64,000 nucleotides of DNA from positions 2,944,001-3,008,000 of the forward strand of contig OY776510.1 of assembly GCA_963675665.1 (NCBI GenBank), in the 5' to 3' direction. The DNA comes from Spirochaetia bacterium (GTDB taxonomy: Bacteria; Spirochaetota; Spirochaetia; UBA9216). This document shows positions 3,155-19,903 of the stretch, one piece after another; positions within the stretch are counted from its first letter, which is position 1; each line of letters begins with the position of its first letter. The notes beneath the pieces are model-generated. The model ran no database searches, was not told where the DNA came from, and saw nothing but the letters and a program-made list of their open reading frames with translations. A program made the translations under genes and the position numbers.

Positions 3155-3760
3155 TTAATGATACAGGGTCAGTAATTGGTTTATTTTTTCCGGAATACTT
3201 TCACGCGGGGGCCTGTCTTCGAGCCATGTTGTGAATAACCCGAATATATAACCTCTGATAGTATGAAGAATCTCAAATGAAGAAAATTTATCTGAAAGCT
3301 GACCTGTTTTCTGGGCCCTTTTAATAACATCCTCAAGGCTTTTGTTTGCATCGCGATAGGTATCCAGAAAATGATTAATGGCAACAGAATCTTCACGATA
3401 ATCTTCGTCAATTACCATCGGGAAAACCTGTGTAAGGATAATATGCAAAAGAGGCATATTATCATAATAAAATTCCGTAATCATTATTACCATTTGTTTC
3501 AGTACAGAAATAGGATTGGTTTCAATATCCTTGAATCGAATATTGTCCAGCGTAAAGTCATGATACTCCTGGTCAAGTATTGTATCGATGATTTCGGGAA
3601 TGCTTTTAAAATAATAGTAAAGACTGCTTTTGTCCATATCTATTGCGTCGGCAATCGATGCCAGTGTGACCTGTTTCCCGTATTTAACAAATAATTCTTT
3701 AGCAGCATCAAGAATTAGTGTTTTTTTCTGTTCCAGCCGTGATTTTTTTGATGCTTTCAT
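3155..3760 (-). CDS. TetR/AcrR family transcriptional regulator
   Basis: N-terminal ILDAAKELF...TLASIADAIDMDKSSLYYYFKS HTH; divergent from the catabolic operon. Confidence 0.92.
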   Translation of the reverse strand: MKASKKSRLEQKKTLILDAAKELFVKYGKQVTLASIADAIDMDKSSLYYYFKSIPEIIDTILDQEYHDFTLDNIRFKDIETNPISVLKQMVIMITEFYYDNMPLLHIILTQVFPMVIDEDYREDSVAINHFLDTYRDANKSLEDVIKRAQKTGQLSDKFSSFEILHTIRGYIFGLFTTWLEDRPPRESIPEKINQLLTLYH

Positions 3761-3931
3761 AAACCTGTCCGTTTAAAAATCCTGTATTCAGTATATAGCA
3801 CTCATTTTAGTATGGCAAGGTTCTTGACAAACAAACTGGAATAAAATTCTGAATATATGAAAAAATAATATTTCCAAAAAATATTCAAGAAGAAAATTTA
3901 ATAATATTTCAAAAAAATTTTGAAAAAAACA

Positions 3932-3965
3932 TTGACATAACGAATATACAATGTAAAATGTTCGT
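3932..3965 (+). promoter_or_regulatory. Sigma70-like promoter overlapped by an imperfect inverted repeat (candidate TetR operator)
   Basis: TTGACA(3932)-N16-TAAAAT(3954); inverted repeat ACGAATAT-N10-ATGTTCGT at 3940-3965. Confidence 0.55.
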
Positions 3966-3990
3966 ATAGAAGTTCATAAGAGGTGAAATT

Positions 3991-5352
3991 TTGAATAGTA
4001 AAGGGAAAAACATACCAAGAAGCTATAAAACTGCTATGCCCTGTGCTGTAAGTGCAGAAGGGATTTATATATATGATGATGATGGAAAACGTTATATAGA
4101 CGGATGCTGCGGAGCTTTAATTTCCAATATCGGCGAATGCGTACCGGAAGTGGTGGACGCAATAAGTGAGCAGCTTCGCACGCTGAATTTTGCTCATCCG
4201 TCAAGATGGCGGAATACTTCAACCGAAGGAGCTGCTGAAGAACTGGCGGAGCTTCTGCCTGATGATCTTAATAATGTCTGGTTTGTCAGCGGCGGAAGTG
4301 AAGCGAATGAATCAGCCGTCAAACTTGCCCGGCAATATTATACAGAACGGGACGGAAAGGGTTCTTCCAAAAATGAAATCATAGGTCGATGGAATTCCTA
4401 TCACGGCGCAACACTGGGATGTATGGCAATAGCCGGAAATATGTCGAGAAGAAGAACATTTGCCCAAATGTTTAAAGAGCATTCGAAAATTGAAACTCAT
4501 TATTGCTACCGATGCCCGTATGGTCTTGAATATCCGAAATGTAAAATAAAATGTGCATATGAGCTTGAGGATACCGTGAATCGTATTGGTGCAGAGTCGA
4601 TTGCAGCTTTTATTGCAGAGCCGATTGTCGGTTCAAGCATAGGGGCTTTAACTCCGCCTGATGAATACTGGCCTGTCGTACGTAAAATATGCAGCGATAA
4701 CGATATTTTGCTTATTGCCGATGAGGTTATGACCGGTATGGGTCGGACGGGTAAGGCTTTCTGTGTTGAGCACTGGAATGTCACTCCCGATATAATGACT
4801 TCGGCAAAGGGGCTTGCCGCAGGGTATATACCTGCAGGCGCGGTGTTCGCCCCGGATTATATAATGAACGTAATAAAGGCCGGCAGCGGAAGTTTTGCAA
4901 ACGGATATACATATAACGGCAATCCGGTTGCGTGTGCAGCGATATCGGCAGTAGCCAGGTATATAAAAAAGAACAGGCTTATAGAAAACGCAGCCCGTCA
5001 GGGGGAGATTCTTGCGAATGAACTGGTGAAGCTGAAAAGTCTGCCGATAGTCGGGGATATCCGTGGTCTGGGGTTGATGAGGGGCATTGAAATTGTTGCT
5101 GATGCTTCAACCAGGGAGCCTTTTCCAGCCGGGCTGCATGCTTCTTCCATGATTGCCCAGGAATGTATGAAAAGGGGACTTGTGATATATCCTTCGGGCG
5201 GTATGGTAAACGGAGGTACCCGGGGGGACAATTTCCTTATTGCTCCCGCCTTGATTGTAACGGAAGAACAAATCGTTGAAATTGTGGAAATACTGTATGA
5301 GAGCCTTAAGACGGTATCGGAGCGTTTGCTTGCCGGAAAAGCAGCAGTGTAA
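3991..5352 (+). CDS. Class III PLP aminotransferase, YodT-like
   Basis: SGGSEA, SYHG, AEPIVG, ADEVMTGMGRTG and SAKG (PLP Lys). The motif pattern recalls Bacillus YodT. TTG start after a GAGGTG RBS. Confidence 0.88.
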   Translation: MNSKGKNIPRSYKTAMPCAVSAEGIYIYDDDGKRYIDGCCGALISNIGECVPEVVDAISEQLRTLNFAHPSRWRNTSTEGAAEELAELLPDDLNNVWFVSGGSEANESAVKLARQYYTERDGKGSSKNEIIGRWNSYHGATLGCMAIAGNMSRRRTFAQMFKEHSKIETHYCYRCPYGLEYPKCKIKCAYELEDTVNRIGAESIAAFIAEPIVGSSIGALTPPDEYWPVVRKICSDNDILLIADEVMTGMGRTGKAFCVEHWNVTPDIMTSAKGLAAGYIPAGAVFAPDYIMNVIKAGSGSFANGYTYNGNPVACAAISAVARYIKKNRLIENAARQGEILANELVKLKSLPIVGDIRGLGLMRGIEIVADASTREPFPAGLHASSMIAQECMKRGLVIYPSGGMVNGGTRGDNFLIAPALIVTEEQIVEIVEILYESLKTVSERLLAGKAAV

Positions 5353-5392
5353 CATCCGGGGTATGAGCTTACTTGCAGAGGAGTTAATGTAA

Positions 5393-6082
5393 ATGGCAAA
5401 GAAAAGAATAAAACCGGTATTAACAGCAAAAGATGCGGTAAAGTGCATCTCCAGCGGTGCAACCATTATGGTCGGTGGTTTTAATTACGGAGGCATTCCC
5501 TATAGTCTGATTAAGGCGCTGGTAGAATCTGAAGTTAATGATCTCACTTTAATAAGCAATGACACAGCATATGAAGATGTTGGACAGGGATCGCTTGTTA
5601 AAAACGGCCAGGTTAAGAAGGTTATTGCTTCTCACATCGGCCTGAACAGGGCAACACAGAATTTATACAATGAGCATAAAATTGATCTGGAATTGATTCC
5701 CCAGGGAACTTTTGTAGAAAAAATACGGGCCGGCGGATTCGGGTTGGGCGGGTTTTTAACGCCGACGGGTATAGGAACTGAAGCTCAGAACGGAAAACAG
5801 CTTATTGATGTCGGAGGAAGAGAATATATTCTTGAACTTCCTATGGTCGCCGATGTTTCATTGATCCGCGCTTATAAAGCGGATCAGAACGGGAACCTTA
5901 TCTATTTTGGTACCAACCGGAATTTCAACCCGACAATGGCCACCGCCGGAAAGATTGTTATAGCAGAGGTTGATGATATTGTGGTTTCCGGTGAGATCAA
6001 TCCCAATGATGTTGTGACGCCCGGAATTCTGATCGATTATCTGGTCTTGAAGGAGGACACCTATTATGCTTCCCGTACTTGA
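5393..6082 (+). CDS. 3-oxoacid CoA-transferase subunit A (AtoD/CtfA/YodS family)
   Basis: MVGGF, ISND, SHIGLN, PQGTFVEKIRAGG, TPTGIGT and NFNPTMA motifs. Confidence 0.93.
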   Translation: MAKKRIKPVLTAKDAVKCISSGATIMVGGFNYGGIPYSLIKALVESEVNDLTLISNDTAYEDVGQGSLVKNGQVKKVIASHIGLNRATQNLYNEHKIDLELIPQGTFVEKIRAGGFGLGGFLTPTGIGTEAQNGKQLIDVGGREYILELPMVADVSLIRAYKADQNGNLIYFGTNRNFNPTMATAGKIVIAEVDDIVVSGEINPNDVVTPGILIDYLVLKEDTYYASRT

Positions 6083-6746
6083 TGAAGAAAAAGTCCGAAA
6101 TAGAATTGCAAAGAGAATAGCGCTGGAATTTGATGACGGTGATGTTGTCAATCTGGGCATAGGTATTCCCACCCTTGTATCCGATTATATTCCAACCGGT
6201 ATTGAAGTAGTATTTCAAACGGAAAACGGCGTCGTCGGGGCCGGTCCGAAACCTGAAGTTGACGACTGGCGTTTTATCGGTGCCGGAGGCAGGTGTCTTA
6301 CACTGCTGCCCGGTTCGGCTCTGGTGTCAAGCGAAGTCAGTTTCGGTTTAATCAGGGGAGGGCACATTGATTACACAGTGCTGGGAGCTCTGCAGGTAGA
6401 TGAAAAGGCTAATCTGGCCAGCTGGTGGATTCCCGGAAAACTTATTCCCGGTATGGGCGGCTCAATGGATCTCGTAACCGGCGTAAAAAATGTAATTATC
6501 GCCACAAGCCATGTCAATAAAAAGGGAGAAGCAAAGATTGTTAAAGATTGCAGCTTCCCGCTTACGGGAGTCGGCGTGGTAAGCATGATCGTAACGGAAT
6601 ACGCTGTAATGAGATTTATCGAAAGCAAGCTGGTTTTGTCTGAACTTGCGCCCGGAGTTACCGTAGAAGATCTCCGTGGGAGTACAACTGCGGAATTCGA
6701 AATTGCTAAAGAAATAATAATCATGAAAGGATGCGAAGATGAGTGA
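6066..6746 (+). CDS. 3-oxoacid CoA-transferase subunit B (AtoA/CtfB/YodR family)
   Basis: VNLGIGIPT, catalytic TENG, IRGGHID, GMGGSMDL. Confidence 0.93.
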   Translation: MLPVLDEEKVRNRIAKRIALEFDDGDVVNLGIGIPTLVSDYIPTGIEVVFQTENGVVGAGPKPEVDDWRFIGAGGRCLTLLPGSALVSSEVSFGLIRGGHIDYTVLGALQVDEKANLASWWIPGKLIPGMGGSMDLVTGVKNVIIATSHVNKKGEAKIVKDCSFPLTGVGVVSMIVTEYAVMRFIESKLVLSELAPGVTVEDLRGSTTAEFEIAKEIIIMKGCEDE

Positions 6747-7938
6747 GGCCGAAATAAAGGTGAAACCTGTAATTCTAAGCGCCTGCAGAACTCCCGGGGG
6801 AAAGTACGGAGGCACTCTGCAGAATGAAAAAGCTCCCGGGCTCGGCGCTCTGGTTTTAAAGGAAGCTCTGAAAAGGTCCGGTGTACCGGCGGAAAATATA
6901 TCCGAGATAGTAATGGGCAACGGCTGGCAGGCCGGTATAGGTGCCAATCCTGCAAGAATTGCAGGATGGAAAAGCGAAGTGCTTTCGGAAGTTCCGGCTG
7001 TCACTTTAAATAAGCGCTGCGGTTCCGGATTGCGATCTGTAATGCTGATAGCCGACCGTATCAGGCTTGGTGATATTAATGCAGGTATCGGCGGGGGGAT
7101 GGAAAGCGCCAGCAATGTGCCCTATATACTTCCTGAAGCAAGATGGGGGCACAGGATGGGCGATAAAACCACCCTGGATATTCTTCATAAGGACGGTTTT
7201 TTCTGTCCGTTATCAGAGATGATGATGGGCAATACAGCTGAAATACTTGCCGAAGAATACCATATCAGCAGAAGCGAACAGGATCTTTTTGCTTTGCGAA
7301 GTCACAGGAATGCCGTAGCGGCAATTGAGCAGGGCAAATTCCATAATGAAATCGTACCGGTTCATATAAAAAACAGAAAACAGGAATTTGATTTCGATAC
7401 AGACGAGATCCCCAGAAGCGATACTACGGAAGAAAAGCTTGCAAAACTGCCGACTATTTTTCAGGCCGACGGCACTGTTACCGCAGGAACAAGTTCGGCC
7501 CTGTGCGATGGAGCAAGCGCACTTGTCCTTGCGGCCCCTGATTGGGCGCAGGAAAGGGGACATAAACCAATGGCTGAAATCCTGGGTTATGCGTCTGCAA
7601 CGGTTCCTCCCGATCATATGGGTATAGGCCCGGTTGAAGCTGTTCCGAAAGCCTTGAAAATGGCAGGACTGAGCCTTGCCGATGTTGATCTGATTGAACT
7701 GAATGAAGCTTTTGCTGTTCAGGTATTGGCGGTTCAGCGGGAACTTTCATTTGATATGGATAAATGTAATATATACGGCGGCGCAATAGCCCTTGGACAC
7801 CCGATTGGCGCCACAGGAGCAAAAATACTGACAACTCTTACATATGCGCTTCAGAGTGAAGATAAGGAGATCGGTTTGGCAACTGCATGCATAGGAGGCG
7901 GTCAGGGTGTTGCCATGGTAATAAGAAGATTGAATTAA
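6739..7938 (+). CDS. Acetyl-CoA C-acyltransferase (thiolase)
   Basis: NKRCGSG, NEAFA, GHPIGATG and CIGGGQG catalytic motifs. Confidence 0.95.
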   Translation: MSEAEIKVKPVILSACRTPGGKYGGTLQNEKAPGLGALVLKEALKRSGVPAENISEIVMGNGWQAGIGANPARIAGWKSEVLSEVPAVTLNKRCGSGLRSVMLIADRIRLGDINAGIGGGMESASNVPYILPEARWGHRMGDKTTLDILHKDGFFCPLSEMMMGNTAEILAEEYHISRSEQDLFALRSHRNAVAAIEQGKFHNEIVPVHIKNRKQEFDFDTDEIPRSDTTEEKLAKLPTIFQADGTVTAGTSSALCDGASALVLAAPDWAQERGHKPMAEILGYASATVPPDHMGIGPVEAVPKALKMAGLSLADVDLIELNEAFAVQVLAVQRELSFDMDKCNIYGGAIALGHPIGATGAKILTTLTYALQSEDKEIGLATACIGGGQGVAMVIRRLN

Positions 7939-8031
7939 ATATTTAGAAGCCTCCTTAAAGGTTGAAACATGAATTTGAGAATAGGCAGGCAGAAGAATCT
8001 AATATTTATATAAAAGCTACAGGAGGATTTT

Positions 8032-8844
8032 ATGGGGAGAAGCAGGAAATTCACGGTAGCCGCAGTCCAGATGAAATCGGAAATGAAAAATACCGAGCTT
8101 AATCTGGAGCGGGCCATCGAATTTGTAGTAGAAGCTGCAAAAAAAGGGGCAGATATAGTGTGTTTGCCTGAACTTTTTTACACAGGTTATCATCTTAATG
8201 CTCATGACTTGCAGGATATTGCGGAGCCGGTAGATGGTAATATGGTTAACCGATTACAAAAAGTTGCCAGTGATAATCGGGTATACATAATAGGCGGGTA
8301 TGCAGAGTCTGTAAAGATTCTGGGAAGAATGTATAACTCGGCTATTTTTATAAACGATAAAGGTGAAGTCGTCGGTAATATGAGAAAGGTATATTTGTGG
8401 GGCGAGGAACGGTTGAAATTTCGCGAAGGCGATAAATTTCCTGTTTTTGATACTCCGCTTGGGAAAATCGGAATAATGATTTGTTATGATGCTGAATTTC
8501 CTGAACCCATGAGAATAATGGCATTAAAAGGCGCTGAAATTGTGTTTGTACCATCCGTATGGAGCTTTAATGCCGAGAAAAGATGGCATGTCGATCTGGA
8601 GGGCGGGGCATTATATAACCTGTTCTACACAGTCGGAACAAACACCATCGGAGACGGCGCCTGCGGCAGCTCCAAAATAGTCTCTCCTTATGCAAAAACA
8701 TTAGCCCAGGCCGCAACGGATAAGGAAGAGATTATATATTCAGAGATTGATCTGGATAATGTTATTAAAGCACGTTCAGAAATACCTTACCTGAATGATT
8801 TTAAAGAAGACACTTTTAGCATGGATGCGCTAAAAACTTATTAA
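8032..8844 (+). CDS. Carbon-nitrogen hydrolase (nitrilase superfamily amidase)
   Basis: Glu-Lys-Cys triad: LPELF, RKVYL, ICYDAEFPE. Confidence 0.9.
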   Translation: MGRSRKFTVAAVQMKSEMKNTELNLERAIEFVVEAAKKGADIVCLPELFYTGYHLNAHDLQDIAEPVDGNMVNRLQKVASDNRVYIIGGYAESVKILGRMYNSAIFINDKGEVVGNMRKVYLWGEERLKFREGDKFPVFDTPLGKIGIMICYDAEFPEPMRIMALKGAEIVFVPSVWSFNAEKRWHVDLEGGALYNLFYTVGTNTIGDGACGSSKIVSPYAKTLAQAATDKEEIIYSEIDLDNVIKARSEIPYLNDFKEDTFSMDALKTY

Positions 8845-8859
8845 AGAAGGAGTAAAGTA

Positions 8860-10128
8860 ATGTCGGAAACAACACTTACAAAAGATGCAAACACATCTTC
8901 AGCAAAGGCTTCTGAAAATTCGGTATACGAAGAAGGAGCCTTAAAAATCACCAGATTAACCAATAAGGAAGTACTGTTTACCATTATTGGTTGTGTAATC
9001 GGTTCGGGTTCACTTGGTACAGCATATGCTGCAAGATTAGCAGGCTGGCCAATTATAGCACTGTGGTTTGTAGTATCCGGTTTCTTGACTACATGTTCAA
9101 TGTTGTATGTAGCAGAAACAACTCTCAGAACAAAGAAATTTGTTCAGCTTCCGGGACTTGCGGAAAAGTATGTTGGAAAACCGGGAGCCGTTATAATCTT
9201 CCTGGCTGTTCTGGTCAATGCTCTCGGTTGTCTGATTGCATATTTTAACGGAAGCGGAGCTATAATTTCCCAGATGATTGGCGTGCCCAGATGGGTATCA
9301 ATGCTTATCTTTTTAATCCCGGCTGCAGGTGTTTCCTGGTTCGGTCTGAAGGCTACAGGAATCGGAGCAAAAGTACTTAGTTTCGGGATGATTATAATTC
9401 TCACTATTTTATGTATAGCAACATTTTTCTCCTCGAAGGTTGATTTCAGCAATGTAGTATTTGTAAACTGGAAATACGCAATTCCGCTTTTTAACGTAGC
9501 TGCATTCAGTTATATAGGACAATATCTGGTTCCGGATTTGGCCAGGGGTATGTCTCATAACCCGAGAGCTCTTGCTCCGGCAATTGTAAAAGGTATGATT
9601 ATCTCAGGTGTATTGCTGATATGTATACCATTCAGTGTTCTTCTGGTAAACGATCCTGCTGAAGTAACACAGGTCGCAACTCTCTCATGGGGAGAAGCAC
9701 TTGGATTATGGGCTTTCTTTATCGGTAATATTTATGCCCTTATAGCCATGCTTACATCCTACTGGGCAATAAAGACTACAATAGTAACCAATATCGTTGA
9801 TGTCTTTAAATTCCGGTCTGAATGGGATATTAAAACCAGATTGTCAATAACAGCTGTTGTAACAGCTATCCCGTTATTTCTTGCTATAACCGGTCTCGTC
9901 GGATTTGTAAATGCAATTTATGCTGCAGGCACTTTCGGCGGTATTGTAATGGCTATAATTCCTGTAATGATGCTCAGAAAATCAAGGAAGATTGGAGAAG
10001 TGGAACCTTCCTGGACCTGCAGCTGGTATTCTCATTCTTTCTTCCAGGGATTGCTGATTGTAGTTTATTCTCTTGCATTCATCTATGCAGTATTAAGCCT
10101 GTTCGGATTGTTGCCGGCCGGTTGGTAG
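8860..10128 (+). CDS. Amino acid permease (Trp/Tyr permease-like, APC superfamily)
   Basis: About 11 hydrophobic segments; IIGCVIGSGSLG TM1 motif; AFSY and LTSY motifs. Confidence 0.82.
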   Translation: MSETTLTKDANTSSAKASENSVYEEGALKITRLTNKEVLFTIIGCVIGSGSLGTAYAARLAGWPIIALWFVVSGFLTTCSMLYVAETTLRTKKFVQLPGLAEKYVGKPGAVIIFLAVLVNALGCLIAYFNGSGAIISQMIGVPRWVSMLIFLIPAAGVSWFGLKATGIGAKVLSFGMIIILTILCIATFFSSKVDFSNVVFVNWKYAIPLFNVAAFSYIGQYLVPDLARGMSHNPRALAPAIVKGMIISGVLLICIPFSVLLVNDPAEVTQVATLSWGEALGLWAFFIGNIYALIAMLTSYWAIKTTIVTNIVDVFKFRSEWDIKTRLSITAVVTAIPLFLAITGLVGFVNAIYAAGTFGGIVMAIIPVMMLRKSRKIGEVEPSWTCSWYSHSFFQGLLIVVYSLAFIYAVLSLFGLLPAGW

Positions 10129-10184
10129 AGCCGTTAATTATAAATGATTTAAAAACTGTCAGCTTACTTAATAAATTCTCTATT

Positions 10185-10211
10185 AAACCTCTGCCGGAAG
10201 GCAGGGGTTTT
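10185..10211 (+). terminator. Intrinsic terminator ending the catabolic operon
   Basis: AAACCTCTGCC-GGAA-GGCAGGGGTTTT stem-loop. Confidence 0.7.
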
Positions 10212-10280
10212 AACATTAATTGGATTCATAACGGTTTTCCGCTCAACTTATTAATGCTTCAGTTTAAAAAATGAAAAACC

Positions 10281-11408
10281 CTACCGGGAAAGCTTTTTTA
10301 CAAAACACCGCCTTCTTTTATGCTGACGATGTTCGTAGTGTCTCCATATATCCTGAACAGCTTTATTGTTTTCAAGTTCTCCGGAGGTTTCACAGCTTTT
10401 AATTCCGTTTCTGATTGCAGCCTTGTTTACTTCGGTCAGCATCAGCGCAATTATTCCCCGGCCCGAATATTCTTTTTTTACACCGATAAGATAAAGATCC
10501 AGCTTTTCAGGGTGTTTGAACGCATGCAGAATATGAAATATCCCAAACGGAAATAATCTGCCCCGGGCTTTTTGCAGCGCTTTTGTAAGCGACGGAAATG
10601 CAATTCCTGCAGCAATGACATTGTCGTTCTCATCCAGAACAAACTTCGTATAATCTGGAACAATGAAGCCGAAATACTGTTTGGTATAAAAATCTTTCTG
10701 TTTCTGTGTCAGAGGAACCGTGCCGAATAATTTTTCATAAGCCTCGTCAATTATTTCCCAGAAACCGGGAATATATGGTTTGAAATCCCCGGATTTTTTT
10801 GCATCAAGCAGCCTGATTCCGGAACGTTTGCAGATTAGATCATTAACATGAATTACTTTTTCAGGAATTTCATCGGGGACTTTGACCTCGAATTCAAGCC
10901 AGTCAACTTCCTTGCTGTAACCCAGTTTTTCCAGATGTACAGGATAATAGGAATAATTATATATCATGGGGTATGTGCCCTGCTCGTCAAATCCTTCAAC
11001 AAGCATGCCTTCTTCATCCAGGTCGGTAAAGCCCATCGGGCCTTCTATAGCCTCCATACCGTTTTCTGCGGACCATTTCTCTACGGCTGAAAAAAGCGCT
11101 GCTGAAACTTCTTCATCATCTATGAAGTCGAGCCAGCCGAATCTGGCTTTCTTTTCTCCCCATTTATTTACCAGTGCGTCATTGAGTATTCCGCCAATTC
11201 TTCCGGCAATCATGTCGTTTTTGAATGCAAGCCAGTATTTCGACCTGCAGTGTTCAAATGCAGGATTAATTTCAGAATTGAGGGTTTTCAGCTCATCCCT
11301 TATAAACGGAGGCGCCCAGTATTTGTTGTTTTTATAAAGCCGGAAAGGAAACTTTACAAACTGCCTGAGCTCCGATTTGGTTTTTACTTCTTTAATGATC
11401 ACGCTCAT
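10281..11408 (-). CDS. GNAT-fold protein (YghO-like)
   Basis: FVKFPFRLY, GRIGG, RFGWLDF, EGPMGFTD and GVKKEYSGRG acetyl-CoA motif. Confidence 0.8.
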   Translation of the reverse strand: MSVIIKEVKTKSELRQFVKFPFRLYKNNKYWAPPFIRDELKTLNSEINPAFEHCRSKYWLAFKNDMIAGRIGGILNDALVNKWGEKKARFGWLDFIDDEEVSAALFSAVEKWSAENGMEAIEGPMGFTDLDEEGMLVEGFDEQGTYPMIYNYSYYPVHLEKLGYSKEVDWLEFEVKVPDEIPEKVIHVNDLICKRSGIRLLDAKKSGDFKPYIPGFWEIIDEAYEKLFGTVPLTQKQKDFYTKQYFGFIVPDYTKFVLDENDNVIAAGIAFPSLTKALQKARGRLFPFGIFHILHAFKHPEKLDLYLIGVKKEYSGRGIIALMLTEVNKAAIRNGIKSCETSGELENNKAVQDIWRHYEHRQHKRRRCFVKKLSR

Positions 11409-11508
11409 GCATCCTCCGTAAAAAAAAGGAAGAATATTCAGGATAAATAGTACTATATACTATTTTTATCTTTTCAGAAACAAAAATGATTGATGAAAAA
11501 TCTTGCTT

Positions 11509-12081
11509 CTAATAGATGTTTTTGATTTCCATGTATCTGAAACAGCCCGTCAGATGATCATTAACCATTCCGGCGGATTGCATATAAGCATAGCAGATAG
11601 TAGATCCGCAGAATTTGAATCCTCTTTTTTTCAGGTCTTTCGACATTGCATCCGACACGGATGTTGAGGATGGCAGGTCTGATAATTTGCTGAATGGATT
11701 GTTAATACTCTTGCCTCCGGTAAAATGCCAGATATATTTATCAAAACTCCCGAATTCCTTTTTTACCTCAAGAAACGCCTGTGCGTTGGAAACGGCTGAT
11801 CTTATTTTCAGATTGTTTCGGATAATGCCGGGATTTTGCAGAAGTTCGGAAATTTCGGTTTCATTATATGCCGCCACTTTAACAGGATCGAAACCGTCAA
11901 ATGCCAGCCGGTAATTTTCCCGTTTGCGGAGAACTGTTATCCATGAAAGGCCGGCCTGTGCGCCTTCAAGTACAAGAAGTTCGAAGTGTTTGATATCATC
12001 ATGGACAGGTACTCCCCATTCTTCATCATGATATTGAACATAGAGAGGGTCATTTCCGCACCAGCTGCATCTGCGTTTCAT
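11509..12081 (-). CDS. tag: DNA-3-methyladenine glycosylase I
   Basis: RCSW, YHDEEWG, LEGAQAGLSW, GMVNDH...C. Confidence 0.96.
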   Translation of the reverse strand: MKRRCSWCGNDPLYVQYHDEEWGVPVHDDIKHFELLVLEGAQAGLSWITVLRKRENYRLAFDGFDPVKVAAYNETEISELLQNPGIIRNNLKIRSAVSNAQAFLEVKKEFGSFDKYIWHFTGGKSINNPFSKLSDLPSSTSVSDAMSKDLKKRGFKFCGSTICYAYMQSAGMVNDHLTGCFRYMEIKNIY

Positions 12082-12212
12082 ATTCTATCTTTAGCATATG
12101 GAACAATAAAAGAGAAGATGCTAAACGGTATGGCAATCGGAAGGAATCTGCAACTCGTGTAGGTAAAATATAGAAAAAATTGTAATAAAACACCATAAAA
12201 ACAATTATTAAT

Positions 12213-12240
12213 TTGACAAAAGTTAAATAGATGGTAAAAT
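12213..12240 (+). promoter_or_regulatory. Sigma70-like promoter of the sugar ABC operon
   Basis: TTGACA-N16-TAAAAT with an extended TG. Confidence 0.6.
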
Positions 12241-12308
12241 ATCAAATAAATCTAAATAAAGACTCTCATATAAAACATGAAGAGAGAAAGAAGGACGGAG
12301 GACTTAAA

Positions 12309-13262
12309 ATGAAAAAAAAGGTTGCAGTTTTTTTAATTGTTACAACTATTCTTTTTAGCGGAACAGTATTATTCGCAAGCGGTCAGCAGGACAAAGATGA
12401 TGGTCAGCTGAAAATTGTTTATTCGCAGATTGACCTTGTTAACCCGTTTTTTATTTCAAGGCTTGAAGGTGCAAAAGCCAAATGTGAAGAACTCGGAATA
12501 AAACTTATAGTAGACGATGCGCAGTGTGATGTTTCGAAGCAGGTTTCATCAATTGAAAATTATATTGCGCAGGGTGTTGACGGTATCATTATGATTTGTG
12601 TTGATACAGCGGCAATGACCGATGTGGTTGCCCAGGCAACAGACGCCGGGATTCCGGTTATGACTGTAATTACCCTTGTTGAAGGCTCATCGGCACAGTG
12701 CATACTCGATGAGTATGAGTTCGGTTACCAGGCCGGTTTGAATGCAGGTGAATGGGTTTCTGAAGAACTGGGCGGAAAGGCTGATTGTGCTATTCTCGGC
12801 TATCCCGATATGCCGCAGAATAAATACAGAATTGACGGAATGAGAGACGGTCTTCTTAAACTTGCTCCCGGTGCGAATATTGTATCGGATAATCAGTCGG
12901 CAAATAATACGGCAGACGGTATGAAATGTACCGAGGTGCTTCTTCAGGCAAACAAAGACCTTGAAGTTATAATATGTCATTCAGATGCTGTTGCGCTTGG
13001 CGCTTATGAAGCTGTAATTGCTGCAGATCGCGATAGCGACAGGTTCTTTATCGGCGGTATTGATGCAACTCCTCCGGGGCTTGACGCAATGAAGGAAGGC
13101 GGTATTTTCAGGGCAAGCGTAGATATGATGCCGTATGCCGAAGCTGCAAACGATATAGAGATGATGGTCGATCTTATTAACGGCAAAAAGGTTGAAGACC
13201 ATGTGATTTCTTTTGAAAGGGTGACCTGGAAGAATCTCGAAGAATATCTTGCCTCAAAATAA
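12309..13262 (+). CDS. Sugar ABC transporter substrate-binding protein (RbsB-like)
   Basis: Start moved to ATG 12309 after GGAGG. Signal MKKKVAVF...LFASGQQD, NPFF, GGIDAT. Confidence 0.9.
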   Translation: MKKKVAVFLIVTTILFSGTVLFASGQQDKDDGQLKIVYSQIDLVNPFFISRLEGAKAKCEELGIKLIVDDAQCDVSKQVSSIENYIAQGVDGIIMICVDTAAMTDVVAQATDAGIPVMTVITLVEGSSAQCILDEYEFGYQAGLNAGEWVSEELGGKADCAILGYPDMPQNKYRIDGMRDGLLKLAPGANIVSDNQSANNTADGMKCTEVLLQANKDLEVIICHSDAVALGAYEAVIAADRDSDRFFIGGIDATPPGLDAMKEGGIFRASVDMMPYAEAANDIEMMVDLINGKKVEDHVISFERVTWKNLEEYLASK

Positions 13263-13288
13263 TCAGAATACAGATTAATCATTTTATT

Positions 13289-13316
13289 GCAGTCGCCCGG
13301 TGCTCCGGGCGGCTGC
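13289..13316 (+). other. Intercistronic stem-loop after the SBP gene
   Basis: GCAGTCGCCCGG-TGCT-CCGGGCGGCTGC with no U-tract; typical mRNA-stabilising hairpin in ABC operons. Confidence 0.55.
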
Positions 13317-13337
13317 TGTATATATAAGGAGTCAGTT

Positions 13338-14828
13338 TTGATTAAAGATATTATCCTCGAGGCGAAAAATATCAGTAAGGGATTTCCCGGCGTTCAGGCT
13401 CTTGATGACGTGAAGTTTGATCTCAGAAAGGGCGAGGTTCATGCTTTAATAGGCGAAAACGGCGCCGGGAAATCTACTTTCATAAAAATATTAACCGGAG
13501 CTCATCAGCCTGACGGCGGACAGATCCTGCTGTCGGGAAAGAAACTTACCGATTTAACGCCACACCTTGCGATGAAATACGGTATTTCGGCGATTTACCA
13601 GGAGTTTAACCTGATCCCGTATTTAACGGTTGCAGAGAATATATTTTTTGGAAGGGAAATCACAAAATCAGTCTTTGTTGATATGGAGAAGATGAATAAG
13701 TCGGCTTCCGAAATTTTCAGGGCCATCGATGTAAATATAAATCCGAAGCTGCAGGTATCCGAGTTAACCGTTGCATATAAGCAGCTTGTAGAAATTGGTA
13801 AAGCCGTCAGTCAGAATTCCCGGATACTTATTTTTGATGAGCCGACGGCAGCGCTCACGAACAGGGAGACTGAAAACCTGTTCAAACTGATAAAAAAACT
13901 GAAAGCTGAAGGGGTCTCGATAATTTATATTTCACACAGGCTTGAAGAACTTCAGGAAATTGCGGACAGAATAACCGTTTTGCGTGACGGCCGATATATT
14001 GATACCCTGGATATTCACGAAACCGACAGGGCCGGGCTGATAAGCCTCATGGTCGGAAGAAAGCTTGGAGTAAATTTTCCGAGACCGTCTGCCGCCGGGG
14101 GTGAAGTACTTCTCGAAGTGAATAACCTGAGCACAGAAGGCTTTCTTAAGGATATAAATTTCAAGCTCAGGCGCGGAGAAATCCTCGGTTTCGGCGGCCT
14201 GGTAGGTGCCGGACGTACGGAGGTAGCCAGAGCGCTCTTCGGTCTGGACAGGATGGAATCAGGAGAGGTTTACATCAGGGGTTGTAAAGTCGAAAACAGA
14301 AGTCCGGCCAAAGCTATTGAAAACGGAATAGGTCTTATACCGGAGGACAGAAAAGACCAGGGGGTACTTCTTAATCTGTCGGTAAGGGAAAACATTGGTT
14401 ATACATTCACAAAACTTATAACAGACTGGATTTTTATAAACAGGAAAAAAGAGAAAACCCTAGTAGACGAATTCAGAAAGAAACTATCCATAAAATGTTC
14501 TTCCGCCGAACAGAGGGCGGCCAATCTGAGCGGCGGGAACCAGCAGAAAGTAGTGCTTGCAAAATGGCTTGCCGGCGACTGCGATGTTCTCATATTTGAC
14601 GAGCCGACACGCGGTATCGATGTCGGTGCAAAGCAGGAAATCTATAACCTGATAAAGGAACAGGCTGAAGCCGGAAAAGGAATAATCCTGATTTCTTCCG
14701 AAATGCCGGAACTTATTGGAATGTCCGAAAGGATAATCGTTATGCATGAAGGCGCCATAGAAGGTGTACTTTCGGCCGATGAAGTGAGTCAGGAGAAGAT
14801 CCTTGACCTTGCCTCGGGAACCAATTAA
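13338..14828 (+). CDS. Sugar ABC transporter ATP-binding protein (RbsA-like)
   Basis: GENGAGKST, two DEPT motifs, LSGGNQQK. TTG start after AAGGAG. Confidence 0.95.
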   Translation: MIKDIILEAKNISKGFPGVQALDDVKFDLRKGEVHALIGENGAGKSTFIKILTGAHQPDGGQILLSGKKLTDLTPHLAMKYGISAIYQEFNLIPYLTVAENIFFGREITKSVFVDMEKMNKSASEIFRAIDVNINPKLQVSELTVAYKQLVEIGKAVSQNSRILIFDEPTAALTNRETENLFKLIKKLKAEGVSIIYISHRLEELQEIADRITVLRDGRYIDTLDIHETDRAGLISLMVGRKLGVNFPRPSAAGGEVLLEVNNLSTEGFLKDINFKLRRGEILGFGGLVGAGRTEVARALFGLDRMESGEVYIRGCKVENRSPAKAIENGIGLIPEDRKDQGVLLNLSVRENIGYTFTKLITDWIFINRKKEKTLVDEFRKKLSIKCSSAEQRAANLSGGNQQKVVLAKWLAGDCDVLIFDEPTRGIDVGAKQEIYNLIKEQAEAGKGIILISSEMPELIGMSERIIVMHEGAIEGVLSADEVSQEKILDLASGTN

Positions 14829-14843
14829 ACAAAGGAGGATTTT

Positions 14844-15812
14844 ATGCCGGATGGGTTCAATCCGATAAAGTCGATTCGTAAACATGGAATTTTCTATGTC
14901 TGTATTGTAGTTTTTATTTTTTTTGCTGTTGCATCAGATGCATTTCTTACAAAAAACAATCTGATGAATGTTGTAAGGCAGGTATCAATGCTGGGGATAA
15001 CTGCGGTAGGAATGACTTGTGTAATACTGACCTCCGGAATAGATCTGACCGTCGGGTCTGTTCTGGGGCTTGCCGGAACAGTCTGCGCCAAACTGATGGT
15101 AGAGGCGGGGTTTCATCCGGTTATATCAGTCATACTCGCACTGGTCGCCGCATGTCTGTGCGGTATCGTCAGTGCGTTTATGATCACAACCGTGCGTATC
15201 CCTCCGCTTATTGCCACGTTGGGGTTAATGGGAACAATAAGGGGCGTAATATACATACTCTGCGGCGGGTTGCCGGTTTACGGTTTTACAAAGTCCTTCA
15301 AGATAATAGGGCAGGGATATATCGGTATAATTCCGGTTCCGGTTATCATAATGATCATAATATTTATAATAGGGCATCTTTTTCTCAACCGTTCAAGATA
15401 TGGCCGGTATATTTACGGTCTCGGCGGAAATGAAGAGGCTGCACGGCTTTCAGGTGTAAATATTCGGGGAATGAAGTATCTGACATATATATTTTCATCC
15501 CTCTGTGCGGGAATTGCCGGTATCGTAATGCTTTCACGGCTATTCAGCGCCCAGCCGACAACCGGAGACGGGTTTGAAATGAATGTAATCACTGCGGTTG
15601 TTCTGGGCGGAATAAGTATTGCCGGAGGCGAAGGAAAACTCAGCGGTGTAATAGCAGGTGTTATGATCATAGGAATTCTGACAAACGGAATGATTCTACT
15701 GAATATAGATTCTTACTGGCAAATGGTTGTTCAGGGAATTGTACTTCTAATGGCGGTAGGTGTGGACCAGTTAGGGAAGTCAATGAATGGAAAAGCAAAA
15801 AAAACTATATAA
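14844..15812 (+). CDS. Sugar ABC transporter permease (RbsC-like)
   Basis: GIDLTVGS, GGNEEAARLSG, AVVLGG. Confidence 0.95.
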   Translation: MPDGFNPIKSIRKHGIFYVCIVVFIFFAVASDAFLTKNNLMNVVRQVSMLGITAVGMTCVILTSGIDLTVGSVLGLAGTVCAKLMVEAGFHPVISVILALVAACLCGIVSAFMITTVRIPPLIATLGLMGTIRGVIYILCGGLPVYGFTKSFKIIGQGYIGIIPVPVIIMIIIFIIGHLFLNRSRYGRYIYGLGGNEEAARLSGVNIRGMKYLTYIFSSLCAGIAGIVMLSRLFSAQPTTGDGFEMNVITAVVLGGISIAGGEGKLSGVIAGVMIIGILTNGMILLNIDSYWQMVVQGIVLLMAVGVDQLGKSMNGKAKKTI

Positions 15813-15825
15813 TTTTCAAAAAATT

Positions 15826-15855
15826 AACCGGAATCCTTTATGTTTCCGGTTTTTA
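15826..15855 (+). terminator. Probable intrinsic terminator
   Basis: AACCGGAA-loop-TTCCGGTT followed by a T-run. Confidence 0.55.
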
Positions 15856-15921
15856 ATTAAAAAATGTTTTATAAATGGAATTTTTCATAATATAATTTAT
15901 AAATAAAACGTATCAGTAGGT

Positions 15922-16861
15922 TTGTTCATGGTTGATAACTTCTTGAAAATTATTCTGCTTGTTGAAGATGATGCAATCATTGCTCTTGAAGAAACATTTA
16001 CGCTGGAGAAAAACGGTTACACAGTGGTTTCGGTCTGCAGTGGAGAAGAAGCTGTTGAAATTGCCGTAAACAGTCAAAATATTGATCTTGTCCTTATGGA
16101 TATTAACCTGGGCGACGGAATGGACGGGATTGAGGCTGCCCGTCTTATACTGAAAGAAAAAGAGATTCCTCTAATATTTCTATCATCGCACATGGAAAAA
16201 GAGATTGTTGAGAAGACTGAGTGCGTCACATCATACGGATATATCACCAAGAACTCCAGTGAAGCTGTAATGCTGACCTCTATAAAAATGGCTTTCAAAC
16301 TTTTTGCTGCCCGGCAGGACATTAAAACAACTGATCAGTATCTAAAAAATGCAAACGATACCCTTGATTCGATATTTAACTCGATAAATGATGCTATTGC
16401 TTTAATAAATATGGATTCCCGGATTGAAAAATGTAATGAAGCATTCAAAATTATTTCAGGTCGAGACGAAAAAAATATTATCGGCATGAAGTGTATGGAT
16501 TTAATACATGAAAAAGGTTTACGCCCCCCTGAATGTCCTTTTATCAGAATGCTGAAAAGCGGCAAACGTGAAAAAATGGAACTCCCTTTAAACGGTAAAA
16601 TATATGAAGTTATAGTTGATCCGTTATTCGACAATGACGGGAAAATGATTAAAGCTGTGCATATTATTACTGATATAACCGAACGGAAGCAGGCTGAAGA
16701 GGCGCTGAATAAACAGTTAAGCGAATTGTTGCTGCCTGTAAAAGATGATGATATTAATTTAAAAAATCTATTAGATACGGACTCTCTCCGGAAGCTGCAG
16801 GATTCTTTTTGCTGATATAACAGGTGCGGCAGCTATCCCGATCCCTGCAGGACAAGTGTGA
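15922..16861 (+). pseudogene. Truncated REC-PAS-(PocR) signalling protein
   Basis: Receiver domain (LLVEDD, LMDINL, YITK) and PAS (..DITERKQAEE), then the start of a PocR-like domain (LLDTDSLRKLQDSF) that stops at 16815. The alternate frame continues ADITGAAA only to 16861. No output domain. Confidence 0.7.
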
Positions 16862-16943
16862 TTCCCTCCCGACTGTTGCAGCATAATTATGAATAAGCCC
16901 GGTTAGCCTTGTAATTATCGCTTCTTTCCGTTATGTTCAATTC

Positions 16944-18578: not shown

Positions 18579-18585
18579 CTTATAT

Positions 18586-18656
18586 AAATATCAGAAACAA
18601 ACTTTTTTAAAACTCTGATAATCCAAAATCAGGATTATCAGGGTTTCCTGATATTT
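18586..18656 (+). terminator. Nested inverted repeat; probable terminator between ABC-F and nifS
   Basis: Inner arms 18610-18624/18632-18646; outer arms AAATATCAG/CTGATATTT. Confidence 0.5.
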
Positions 18657-18724
18657 TTATAAATTCAGATATCCATTCCTAAAACCTTGCCTTTCGACAG
18701 ATATATAGATATATTTCTAATATT

Positions 18725-19903
18725 ATGGATAGAGTTTACCTTGATAATAATGCAACAACCCTGGTTGATCCCCTTGTAAAAGACGCGATGGACCCTTTTT
18801 TTACAAAAATGTACGGGAACCCCAATTCACTGCACAGTTTCGGCACCGAAATACATCCCTACATGAGTATTGCGCTTGACAGGTTGTACGATGGCATAAA
18901 TGCCGATGATAAGGATGATATATTCATTAACAGCTGCGCTTCCGAGGGAAATAATACAGTAATTAAGTCGCTTTATTTCGACAGTGTTCTTAACAGTAAA
19001 AAAAACCGGATGATCACATCTGCAATTGAGCACCCGGCTGTTTCTAATGTATATTTGTTTCTTGAAAAACTTGGTGTCGATGTGAAATGGCTCCCGGTTA
19101 ACAGCCAGGGAATTGTTGATCCTGCCGAATTGCGAAAAGCTATTGATCCGGATAAAACAGCGCTTGTGTCGCTTATCTGGGCAAATAATGAAACCGGCCT
19201 GATAAACCCGGTTAAAGAGTACGGTGAAATCTGCCGTGAGAACGGAGTAAAACTGCATCTTGACGGAGTTCAGGCTATCGGGAAAATTCCTGTCGATGTT
19301 CAGGATGTTGAAGTCGATTATCTGACCTTCAGCGCCCATAAGTTTCACGGCCCGAAAGGAGTAGGCGGTCTGTATGTCCGAAACGGCGCAGGCATAACTC
19401 CCCTGATCCACGGCGGCGAACAGATGAACGGAAAACGCGCAGGCACCATCAATACCGCTTTCATGATAGGTATGGGACTTGCGCTGGAACTTGCCGTTAA
19501 AAACCTTGATTATGAAGCCACCGAAGTCCGCAGACTGCGCGATAAACTTGAAGACGCCATTCTTGAAATTGATGATGTCGAGGTTATTGGAAGCCGTGAT
19601 ATCCGGACGCCCAATACAATCCTGGCAAGTTTCAGGGGTATTGAGGGTGAAGCTTTCCTCTGGGATCTGAACCAGAAAGGAATAGCAGCATCAACCGGAA
19701 GTGCCTGCTCGTCGGAATCGCTGGAATCAAATCCGACCTTCCAGGCAATGCAGATAGGCGCTGATCTGGCCCATACAGGTATGAGATTCAGCCTGTCGCG
19801 TTATACAACTGAAGAAGAAATTGATTATGCTGTCGATGTTATCAAAGGTGCAGTAGAAAGATTGCGGAGAATCTCATCGACGAGCAACAGGGAATATATC
19901 TGA
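18725..19903 (+). CDS. nifS: Cysteine desulfurase, NifS type
   Basis: YLDNNATT, IEHPAV, SAHKFHGPKG, STGSACSS. Confidence 0.95.
   Translation: MDRVYLDNNATTLVDPLVKDAMDPFFTKMYGNPNSLHSFGTEIHPYMSIALDRLYDGINADDKDDIFINSCASEGNNTVIKSLYFDSVLNSKKNRMITSAIEHPAVSNVYLFLEKLGVDVKWLPVNSQGIVDPAELRKAIDPDKTALVSLIWANNETGLINPVKEYGEICRENGVKLHLDGVQAIGKIPVDVQDVEVDYLTFSAHKFHGPKGVGGLYVRNGAGITPLIHGGEQMNGKRAGTINTAFMIGMGLALELAVKNLDYEATEVRRLRDKLEDAILEIDDVEVIGSRDIRTPNTILASFRGIEGEAFLWDLNQKGIAASTGSACSSESLESNPTFQAMQIGADLAHTGMRFSLSRYTTEEEIDYAVDVIKGAVERLRRISSTSNREYI

Follow-up and report, generated by a model that had tools for sequence, protein, structure and literature searches.

The DNA analysed here, called the window throughout, is a stretch of 64,000 nucleotides from a Spirochaetia bacterium. 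The ORF listing of the window contains all seven genes that a first-pass annotation had described, at the same positions and in the same order, and its account of the gene content (a TetR regulator, an aminotransferase, CoA-transferase A/B, a thiolase, an amidase, a permease and a terminator-like hairpin) is confirmed. The locus is arranged as follows.

3155-3760, minus strand: TetR-family regulator, divergent from the operon (TetR_N, 36.5 bits)
3761-3990, no strand: divergent promoter region (sites given below)
3991-5352, plus strand: class III (omega/beta-type) PLP aminotransferase, AT (Aminotran_3, 318 bits)
5393-6082, plus strand: family I 3-oxoacid/acetate CoA-transferase, subunit A (TIGR02429, 224.9 bits, cut-off 128.5)
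6066-6746, plus strand: CoA-transferase, subunit B (TIGR02428, 283.1 bits, cut-off 243.55)
6739-7938, plus strand: thiolase, acetyl-CoA C-acyltransferase (TIGR01930, 441.2 bits, cut-off 240.55)
7939-8031, plus strand: 93-nt spacer between the conserved block and the cassette of amidase and permease
8032-8844, plus strand: nitrilase-superfamily amidase of the PH0642 / P. abyssi 'nitrilase' type (CN_hydrolase, 191 bits)
8860-10128, plus strand: HAAAP-family (Trp_Tyr_perm) amino-acid permease (PF03222, 91 bits, cut-off 22)
10185-10210, plus strand: putative terminator hairpin with an 11-bp stem and a GGAA loop (folding against shuffles)

The AT gene begins with a TTG start codon, and its ribosome-binding site, GAGGTG (3980-3985), lies five bases upstream. 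The CoA-transferase A and B genes overlap by 17 nt, and the overlap between the B and thiolase genes is 8 nt, an arrangement consistent with translational coupling. On the plus strand of the spacer at 7939-8031, the consensus scan found no terminator-like or promoter-like site, and the spacer folds no better than shuffled sequences (z -0.32, 71 of 200 shuffles as good). The hairpin at 10185-10210 has a folding energy of -18.5 kcal/mol (z -4.33, with none of 200 shuffles as good); it is followed by only four U and was not called by the consensus terminator scan.

Upstream of AT lies a strong promoter-like site, TTGACA (3932-3937) and TAAAAT (3954-3959) separated by 16 nt, an 11/12 match. The first-pass annotation had pointed to a repeat at 3940-3965 as the target of TetR. 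A palindrome is indeed present there (ACGAA-N16-TTCGT, 3941-3966), but it is weak, with 5-bp arms and 8 of 13 positions complementary by our own count; it was absent from the output of the repeat search with seed 6, which gave instead a perfect palindrome, TTTCAAAA/TTTTGAAA, at 3907-3925. A divergent TetR gene also adjoins AT in three related loci, L001 (68% identity), L004 (49%) and L041 (48%), and L033 carries a TetR homolog (43%) about 8 kb from its AT. No operator common to the window and the three relatives with the divergent arrangement was found, and because of this lack of conservation the identity of the operator in the window is only tentative.

The AT carries an invariant Cys4 motif (C172, C175, C184 and C188). 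Among NCBIfam models it is matched best by PRK06917 (478.6 bits) and PRK07483 (461.8 bits), neither of which reaches its cut-off (535 and 485, respectively), and its top PDB match is 3i4j (1.4e-79). Among its top PDB matches are proteins deposited as amine, putrescine and GABA transaminases. The specificity of class III ATs is not readable from sequence, which counts against the reading that we consider best. Both CoA-transferase subunits exceed the curated cut-offs and are of the family I 3-oxoacid type, while the AtoD-type model stays below its cut-off on subunit A (263 bits, cut-off 315). The thiolase N and C domains score 270.9 and 166.2 bits (Pfam); the next-best thiolase models, BktB and acetoacetyl-CoA thiolase, are below their cut-offs, as are all acetoacetyl-specific equivalogs.

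We found 154 relatives and kept the best 80 loci, 79 of which have an AT ORF. Of these loci, 32 are well flanked (6.5 kb or more on each side), and representatives of the recurrent neighbour families across the 80 loci were annotated with Pfam. Thiolase and CoA-transferase genes lie within 9 kb of AT on the same strand in 28 of the 32 well-flanked loci (27 with family I A/B and one with family III); in the other four (L013, L020, L048 and L066) the CoA-transferase, the thiolase or both are missing. TRAP importer genes are present in 26 and an RpiR-type regulator in 24 of the 32. A family III CoA-transferase replaces A/B in three loci (L002, L003 and L014), which points to CoA transfer as such as the essential step. 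AT relatives in Spirochaetales and Synergistota share 55-71% identity, and subunit A shares 61-79% in the type I loci. AT, CoA-transferase and thiolase form a module that Spirochaetales and Synergistota have conserved and that is widespread in anaerobic amino-acid fermenters. The window has an AT of the same RWNSYHG/Cys4 subfamily together with CoA-transferase, thiolase and an importer, and differs in having another kind of importer and an additional amidase. In the closest locus, L001 (TetR 68%, AT 70%, CoA-transferase A 79% and B 75%, thiolase 78%), a TAXI binding protein, a DUF1850 protein and a fused permease occupy the place of the window's amidase and permease. The best solved relative of the module's TAXI binding protein is 1us4/1us5 (8.3e-42), which we take to be glutamate-binding.

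Outside this module the AT clade is less uniform. Relatives at 41-44% identity lie near ectoine-utilisation genes (Rhizobium), near acyl-CoA dehydrogenases (B. mycoides) or beside a small protein only (E. coli plasmids), contexts that suggest a functionally diverse wider clade. A plasmid locus of Limimaricola (L082) encodes RpiR, a beta-keto-acid cleavage enzyme (BKACE), an AT and an SDR. Like the window, it joins an AT from the same broad clade (43% identity) to an enzyme that processes a beta-keto acid, here by cleavage with acetyl-CoA; unlike the window, it has BKACE in place of CoA-transferase and thiolase and carries neither importer nor amidase. The BKACE-AT pairing is an alternative route for beta-keto acid disposal. 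In Synergistota, the SDRs adjoining the module cannot be clearly classed as 3-hydroxybutyrate dehydrogenases.

The amidase is a nitrilase-superfamily member by its CN_hydrolase fold and Glu-Lys-Cys set, and its catalytic set is intact, with E47, K119, E126 and C151 invariant in 17 aligned sequences. Its PDB matches are 3ivz (5.7e-37), 1j31 and Nit2 (3.1e-34). In the glutamine transaminase / omega-amidase (Nit2) pathway, a transaminase works together with an amidase of the nitrilase superfamily, which hydrolyses the keto-amide formed, and the window offers a similar pair. However, its AT is class III rather than a glutamine transaminase, and we rejected the operon amidase as a Nit2 orthologue: it matches mouse Nit2 at 3.1e-34, against 6e-85 for a paralog at 27938-28774, which is the true Nit2 orthologue of the window and only 28% identical to the operon amidase. 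The permease reaches no specificity equivalog (araaP 82.5 bits against a cut-off of 350, TyrP 29.3 against 482).

Neither an amidase nor a permease like those of the window occurs in any of the 80 related loci (best 80 of 154). The amidase relatives are Clostridia-type fermenters, and there the two genes appear to travel together without AT. This linkage was deduced from contigs of exactly equal size in two lists rather than from viewed DNA: the top-120 lists for amidase and permease share 16 such contigs (15 besides the window's genome), compared with 3 for AT-amidase and 1 for AT-permease (2 and 0 besides the window's genome). Fourteen of the 15 are long enough for both genes, several being only 2.7-3.7 kb, and one (1512 bp) is too short, which means that some matches are due to chance. 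The one amidase homolog with readable context (Fusobacterium, 47%) has no permease alongside. The GC content of the cassette is 0.41, against 0.446 +/- 0.029 for 33 other genes, and composition gives no foreign mark. On this comparative evidence, the operon is a mosaic, in which amidase and permease would be a separate cassette added to a conserved core.

Our model, to which we give an even chance, is that of a TetR-controlled six-gene catabolic operon in two parts, the core module and the amidase-permease pair, fed by an imported beta-amino-acid amide. The first part (TetR, AT, CoA-transferase A/B and thiolase) would be a local copy of the conserved module, which elsewhere nearly always comes with a TRAP importer, usually TAXI-type, and never with an amidase; in the second, the amidase and the HAAAP permease would take the place of that importer, apparently co-transcribed with the first. 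What the analysis shows is the gene families and their order, the conservation of the first part, the absence of the second from the relatives and an intact catalytic set in the amidase; all substrates, the step order, the ligand of TetR and a functional coupling between the two parts are what we infer.

A rival reading does without that coupling. The cassette may be autonomous in this operon, as it is found without AT elsewhere; it would then import and hydrolyse an unrelated amide or carbamoyl amino acid, and the AT substrate would arrive through another transporter or arise within the cell. The 15 equal-size contigs, taxonomic affinities that differ from those of AT, and the 93-nt gap that follows the overlapping core genes all speak for such independence. 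A probable second AT paralog (P0008, 63% identity) comes from a contig of the same length as that of the window's own genome, and a canonical TRAP-linked module may thus exist elsewhere in this genome. However, neither a terminator nor a promoter signal is seen in the junction, the module includes an importer in 26 of the 32 well-flanked relatives, and the permease is the operon's only importer, exactly at the position of the TRAP genes of L001; we regard independence as possible but rather unlikely. A different order of steps would follow if the CoA-transferase first activated the 3-amino acid and AT then acted on the 3-aminoacyl-CoA ester. PMC3149608 describes such an enzyme, Kat, a HemL-like acyl-CoA beta-transaminase that acts on CoA esters only and yields acetoacetyl-CoA for the thiolase encoded beside it; it is a class III AT, as is the window AT, and delivers a 3-oxo compound. 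In lower lysine fermentation a C4 unit is turned into acetyl-CoA by a CoA-transferase of the acetoacetate type together with a thiolase, much as would happen in the window. Gene content cannot separate the two orders. Nevertheless, Kat is excluded as the closest relative of the window AT, which belongs to another subgroup: no HemL model is among its best 25 of 69 NCBIfam matches, and no glutamate-1-semialdehyde aminomutase among its 60 best PDB matches. Moreover, kamA, kamDE, kdd and kce are absent from the window and from the annotated recurrent neighbour families, and the CoA-transferase scores as the 3-oxoacid/acetate type. We judge this order improbable. Another difference from lysine fermentation is the importer in the module, which implies an external substrate. 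The Mesorhizobium beta-transaminase described in PMC3149608, a class III, aminomutase-like enzyme that deaminates free 3-aminobutyrate, is of a different subgroup from the window AT, and no linkage of its gene to those for CoA-transferase or thiolase is known. Finally, AT could be an ordinary omega-amine transaminase (for putrescine, GABA, taurine or diaminobutyrate) beside a separate ato-type CoA-transferase and thiolase pair for acetoacetate or short-chain acids. Although the names of its PDB matches and the Rhizobium relative near ectoine-utilisation genes agree with this, the linkage of AT to CoA-transferase and thiolase across two phyla, two gene orders and the family III replacement would be hard to explain, and the aldehyde dehydrogenase that such a route needs is absent from the annotated recurrent neighbour families. 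This makes the proposal extremely improbable.

The first-pass annotation had favoured N-epsilon-acetyl-beta-lysine as substrate, by analogy with the B. subtilis kamA-yod cluster, whose gene order we take to be kamA-yodP-yodQ-yodR-yodS-yodT and in which, as in the window, a class III AT gene adjoins those for CoA-transferase A/B. The window lacks the aminomutase, the AblB/YodP acetyltransferase and the M20 deacetylase of that cluster and has a thiolase, a nitrilase-family amidase and a permease instead. The structure 3I4J, the best PDB match of the window AT, is also reported as the closest to YodT (39%) in PMC6522883, which lists the function of YodT as unknown; this is an indirect sign of a possible YodT link. 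Under this proposal, the operon would scavenge the osmolyte from methanogens, AT would act as N6-acetyl-beta-lysine transaminase, CoA-transferase and thiolase would give acetyl-CoA and 4-acetamidobutyryl-CoA, and deacetylation would fall to the amidase. The Pseudomonas beta-lysine pathway, with its N6-acetyl-beta-lysine transaminase and 4-acetamidobutyryl-CoA deacetylase, has the same reaction logic of C3 transamination, CoA activation, thiolysis and amide hydrolysis, and the proposed chemistry is coherent with it; we know of no gene sequences for its enzymes, and the conserved module differs in having no amidase. The AT family is found in MAGs of Synergistota and Spirochaetales, which often live alongside methanogens in anaerobic habitats. 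Released GABA could be handled by a second class III AT, encoded together with a MocR-type regulator at 22791-25492, and N-acetyl-beta-lysine is widespread as an osmolyte of methanogens (PMC1224877).

Against this, the amidase is missing from all 80 related loci, indicating that the conserved module needs no deacetylase, and its nearest solved relatives are named as Pyrococcus nitrilase/amidase-type proteins and Nit2, not as N-acyl-lysine deacylases. TRAP systems take carboxylate-bearing, mostly anionic solutes, and lysine derivatives, being cationic or zwitterionic, are a poor fit for them; the presence of such systems in most relatives argues against a cationic beta-lysine for the core module. 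The first-pass annotation was right that synthesis genes are absent: across the 64 kb, no lysine 2,3-aminomutase or AblB/YodP-type acetyltransferase domain was found in the 60 ORFs scanned, and a neighbouring GNAT-like ORF had no match to any model of beta-lysine acetyltransferases, even with E values as high as 10 allowed. The M20-type deacetylase YodQ is likewise not in the window, the operon hydrolase being a CN_hydrolase. The view of the amidase as a stand-in for YodQ does not hold: amidase and permease form a cassette of their own, whose relatives are Clostridia-type fermenters. Nothing points specifically to N-epsilon-acetyl-beta-lysine, which we consider a very improbable substrate, and of the earlier proposal only the general idea survives. 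Its alternatives, beta-glutamine and 3-aminobutyrate derivatives, agree no less well with the new evidence.

Returning to the two-part operon, our model suggests that it imports an amide-bearing beta-amino-acid derivative, with the amidase either freeing the substrate or hydrolysing a 3-oxo-amide after transamination. AT would transaminate the 3-amino carboxylic acid to a 3-oxo acid, the family I CoA-transferase would convert this to 3-oxoacyl-CoA, probably with acetyl-CoA as donor, and the thiolase would cleave it to acetyl-CoA and a second acyl-CoA. The recurrence of core and importer fits this chain as first proposed, except for its amide hydrolysis, since the amidase lies outside the conserved module. 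Candidate substrates are 3-aminobutyrate, beta-glutamate/beta-glutamine and beta-lysine derivatives. The simplest would be 3-aminobutyrate, giving acetoacetate and then two acetyl-CoA with no further enzyme required, although we know of no natural amide of it. Beta-glutamate would be the next candidate, its product 3-oxoglutarate being cleaved or decarboxylated to acetoacetate. The idea of a self-contained import and catabolism operon is supported. The probable role of the operon is to convert a beta-amino acid taken up from outside to acetyl-CoA, and the acyl-CoA products would yield ATP through acetate kinase.

ORF mapping, together with Pfam and NCBIfam scans, upheld the gene list and gene order that the first-pass annotation had given for the operon:

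3155-3760, minus strand: TetR regulator (TetR_N, 36.5 bits)
3991-5352, plus strand: class III aminotransferase, hereafter AT, with a TTG start and GAGGTG five bases upstream (Aminotran_3, 318 bits)
5393-6082: CoA-transferase A (TIGR02429, above cut-off)
6066-6746: CoA-transferase B (TIGR02428, above cut-off)
6739-7938: thiolase (TIGR01930, above cut-off)
8032-8844: CN_hydrolase amidase (191 bits)
8860-10128: Trp_Tyr_perm-family permease (91 bits)

We refer to AT, CoA-transferase A/B and thiolase as the core module, and to the amidase and permease as the cassette. Upstream of AT lies a promoter close to consensus (TTGACA at 3932 and TAAAAT at 3959, 11 of 12 positions), and the predicted terminator corresponds to a strong hairpin at 10185-10210 (-18.5 kcal/mol, z -4.33), but with just four U behind it. 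The TetR operator proposed at 3940-3965 fared less well: its 5-bp arms exist but are weak, the repeat search did not recover it, and the four TetR-linked intergenic regions of the window and its relatives revealed no common operator when aligned. The view that this is a catabolism-only unit was borne out, with aminomutase, kdd, kce and beta-lysine acetyltransferase not found in the rest of the 64 kb. Convergent to the operon is a 375-aa ORF (10281-11408, minus strand) carrying a weak C-terminal GNAT match (23 bits). It had neither a PDB match nor an NCBIfam match beyond E 0.1, and we ruled it out as an AblB-type beta-lysine acetyltransferase.

Several other loci in the window deserve mention. 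The segment 22791-25492 (minus strand) encodes a regulator of GntR/MocR type that has an aminotransferase-like domain and, immediately downstream of it, a further class III aminotransferase of 395 aa; by analogy with gabR-gabT, which the pair resembles, this may serve a GABA route. Two cysteinyl-tRNA-synthetase-like genes are present, at 25969-27231 (minus strand) and 58075-59490 (plus strand). The 420-aa protein of this type has no match to the C-terminal anticodon-binding domain and adjoins a glyoxalase-family gene and a methyltransferase; such a paralog could be a cysteine ligase instead of a tRNA synthetase. Six consecutive ORFs of 112-391 aa (36786-41985), without a Pfam family at E up to 1e-5, come after an AMP-binding enzyme gene, and a 446-aa ORF without a Pfam match sits between two opposite-strand acetate/butyrate-kinase-family genes at 51396-55553.

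We then analyzed the identity of AT. Its top NCBIfam models, PRK06917 (478.6 bits, cut-off 535) and PRK07483 (461.8 bits, cut-off 485), both scored below cut-off; they are unnamed 'aspartate aminotransferase family' models, and a search for literature on PRK06917 found none. The top solved structure is 3i4j, an uncharacterised Deinococcus protein (1.4e-79), followed in the PDB ranking by amine, putrescine and GABA transaminases. In a review of B. subtilis PLP enzymes, 3I4J (39%) is also the nearest structure to YodT, whose function is given as unknown (PMC6522883), which is compatible with the YodT analogy drawn in the first-pass annotation. A second clear candidate was Kat, the 3-aminobutyryl-CoA transaminase of variant lysine fermentation, which is described as HemL-like, its gene being located among lysine-fermentation genes (PMC3149608). 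As AT is not HemL-like, with no HemL model among the best 25 of its 69 NCBIfam matches, and has no lysine-fermentation genes alongside, Kat was rejected as its closest relative.

The close relatives of AT (55-71% identity) belong to Spirochaetales and Synergistota, while a wider clade at 41-44% identity is found in unrelated gene contexts. Among plasmid and phage genes there was no counterpart of the YodT context; a B. mycoides plasmid AT (41%) adjoins acyl-CoA dehydrogenases and MFS transporters. On an E. coli IncF plasmid (locus 6017-8898), an RpiR regulator, an AT relative (41%) and a small hypothetical gene lie between IS5-type elements near annotated tetracycline and aminoglycoside resistance genes, an arrangement that looks like a hitch-hiking metabolic fragment.

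AT carries a CxxC...CxxxC motif (HYCYRCP..YP.C...C; window 4504-4554) formed by C172, C175, C184 and C188. It is invariant across 17 aligned relatives; of 120 close homologs all but one (119) have it, as do 94 of the 150 distant representatives. The motif is missing from 3i4j, 6fyq and all PDB chains matching that segment, and the large class III AT subfamily bearing it has no solved structure. The four cysteines may bind Zn or an Fe-S cluster.

To place AT in its genomic context, species-representative genomes were scanned with the 17-sequence alignment. This yielded 154 AT relatives, of which the best 80 loci were kept; their ORFs were called and matched against the window proteins, and the neighbours were clustered. 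One clustering family, mostly antisense and without a Pfam match, was treated as an ORF-calling artefact. Among the 79 loci with an AT ORF (from the best 80 of 154), CoA-transferase A or B was nearby in 54 and thiolase in 51. When only the 32 loci flanked by 6.5 kb or more on each side were counted, thiolase and CoA-transferase occurred on the same strand within 9 kb in 28, TRAP transporter genes in 26 and an RpiR-type regulator in 24; the module was incomplete in four (L013, L020, L048 and L066).

The usual Synergistota order is RpiR, AT, TAXI binding protein, fused TRAP permease, CoA-transferase A/B and thiolase. In an alternative layout, whose enzymes are more divergent (~45% identity), the order is thiolase, A/B, AT, DctQ/M/P and a PucR regulator. 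One Synergistaceae locus (L053, about 10000-21300) holds both back to back, as AT-TAXI-TRAP-CoA-transferase A/B-thiolase and then thiolase-A/B-AT, which suggests that the two layouts are paralogous modules serving different substrates. A family III CoA-transferase replaces A/B in three Spirochaetota loci, and a Limimaricola plasmid AT relative (43%) neighbours an RpiR gene, a beta-keto-acid cleavage enzyme (BKACE) and an SDR. All of these variants preserve one logic: an importer, a transaminase, CoA activation or transfer, and C-C cleavage beside a 3-oxo group. This shared logic is the best available evidence that the AT subfamily would convert a 3-amino acid, once imported, to the 3-oxo acid. 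We dropped 3-hydroxybutyrate dehydrogenase as an acetoacetate marker, since the Synergistota SDR was non-specific when checked and the Limimaricola SDR, though PHB_DH-like, scored below cut-off (209 vs 307 bits).

The window copy differs from these loci in its importer. At the nearest locus (L001; TetR 68%, AT 70%, A 79%, B 75% and thiolase 78% identical), a TAXI binding protein, DUF1850 and a fused permease occupy the place of the amidase and permease, and none of the 80 loci held an amidase- or permease-like ORF, even at E up to 1e-3. Relatives of the amidase were instead found in Anaeromicrobium (69%), Acidaminobacter, Tindallia, Anaerosphaera, Tissierellia and Acidaminococcus, and those of the permease in Wukongibacter (72%), Phascolarctobacterium and Fusobacterium. 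Linkage within the cassette was assessed by equal sizes of the longest contigs between two top-120 homolog lists. The amidase and permease lists had 16 identical contig sizes, 15 besides the window's genome, of which at least one is necessarily due to chance; 14 of these 15 contigs are big enough for both genes, several being just 2.7-3.7 kb. The control pairs had only three sizes in common (AT-amidase) and one (AT-permease). The top amidase match with a counterpart in the permease list (78% identity) pairs with the top permease match (76%), both on 9316-bp contigs. These matching sizes, unlike the controls, indicate that amidase and permease are probably a conserved pair that elsewhere lacks AT linkage. 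By the same measure, P0008, an AT homolog 63% identical, lies on a 5,150,563-bp contig equal in size to that carrying the window's amidase and permease; the window's genome probably has a second AT copy, which perhaps carries the canonical TRAP-linked module.

The operon amidase retains invariant Glu47, Lys119, Glu126 and Cys151. It is nearest to the Pyrococcus PH0642/P. abyssi 'nitrilase' group (5.7e-37), then to Nit2 (3.1e-34). The window's true Nit2/omega-amidase orthologue is a second CN_hydrolase (27938-28774, plus strand; 6e-85 to mouse Nit2), to which the operon amidase is 28% identical. In the protein atlas, the operon amidase matched generic CN-hydrolase clusters only. The GC content of the cassette is a little low yet inside the window's range and does not mark it as foreign. 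We interpret the swap of the importer for a permease-amidase cassette as showing modular evolution; where the ancestral importer system would accept an acid, the window copy would probably take the corresponding amide.

Starting from what is directly observed, namely the families, how their genes are ordered, the pattern in which they are conserved and catalytic residues that are intact, our model proposes that the core module degrades an imported 3-amino acid to acetyl-CoA and that, in the window, the substrate is imported as an amide. We give this reading an even chance. A free 3-amino carboxylate would be converted to a 3-oxo acid and, after CoA transfer, to acetyl-CoA plus a second acyl-CoA. 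The simplest fitting substrate would be 3-aminobutyrate, because its route via acetoacetate to two acetyl-CoA requires no further enzyme. TRAP systems favour anionic carboxylates, and the TAXI binding proteins of the relatives are related to 1us4/1us5 (8.3e-42), a glutamate-binding protein; beta-glutamate would consequently be an attractive candidate as well. In the window operon, where permease and amidase stand in for the TRAP system, the substrate would arrive as an amide. Several observations weaken the model: the unrelated contexts of the wider AT clade, the four of 32 well-flanked loci without part of the module, the dependence of the cassette linkage on contig-size coincidences, and a Fusobacterium amidase homolog (47%), the only homolog locus readable in context, which stands alone among unrelated neighbours without a permease.

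Among the alternatives, functional independence of the cassette from the core module is somewhat unlikely; in the window, the 93-nt spacer that links thiolase to the cassette shows neither a terminator nor a promoter signal. It is quite doubtful that a CoA ester is formed first, with AT acting afterwards. We regard N-acetyl-beta-lysine as a very unlikely specific substrate, and an unrelated omega-amine function of AT as most improbable. In the literature searched, whose coverage leaves out most subscription journals, we found nothing relevant on acetamidobutyryl or acetyl-beta-lysine with transaminase, on a BKACE-aminotransferase pairing or on beta-glutamate catabolism, and no description of a transporter-linked AT/CoA-transferase/thiolase module.

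A narrower version of the imported 3-amino acid model, which we consider decidedly speculative, is that the core module would be an undescribed Synergistota and spirochaete route for methanogen-released beta-amino-acid osmolytes, chiefly beta-glutamate, with the window copy as a derived beta-glutamine version. Glutamate-type TAXI-TRAP systems would import beta-glutamate and the window's permease beta-glutamine, AT and the amidase forming a beta-analogue of the glutamine transaminase/omega-amidase pathway towards 3-oxoglutarate and then acetyl-CoA. Methanogen solutes of this kind that are on record include beta-glutamate, beta-glutamine and N-acetyl-beta-lysine (PMC1224877). If true, this narrower version would define a methanogen-fermenter cross-feeding link and be the first pathway by which these solutes are broken down.

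In its workings the operon resembles lysine fermentation's lower half, but without an aminomutase and with an AT that is not HemL-like. It can also be likened to what the yod genes of B. subtilis have been guessed to do, although it lacks the aminomutase, acetyltransferase and M20 deacetylase. None of the enzyme families is unusual, and the chemistry predicted for them simply combines known reactions; the novelty is the conserved gene module, which in its transporter-linked form spans dozens of Synergistota and Spirochaetales species. Identifying the substrate, if achieved, would assign a function to the class III AT subfamily bearing the four cysteines, and would allow the module to serve as a gene marker of how beta-amino acids are turned over in digesters, guts and sediments.
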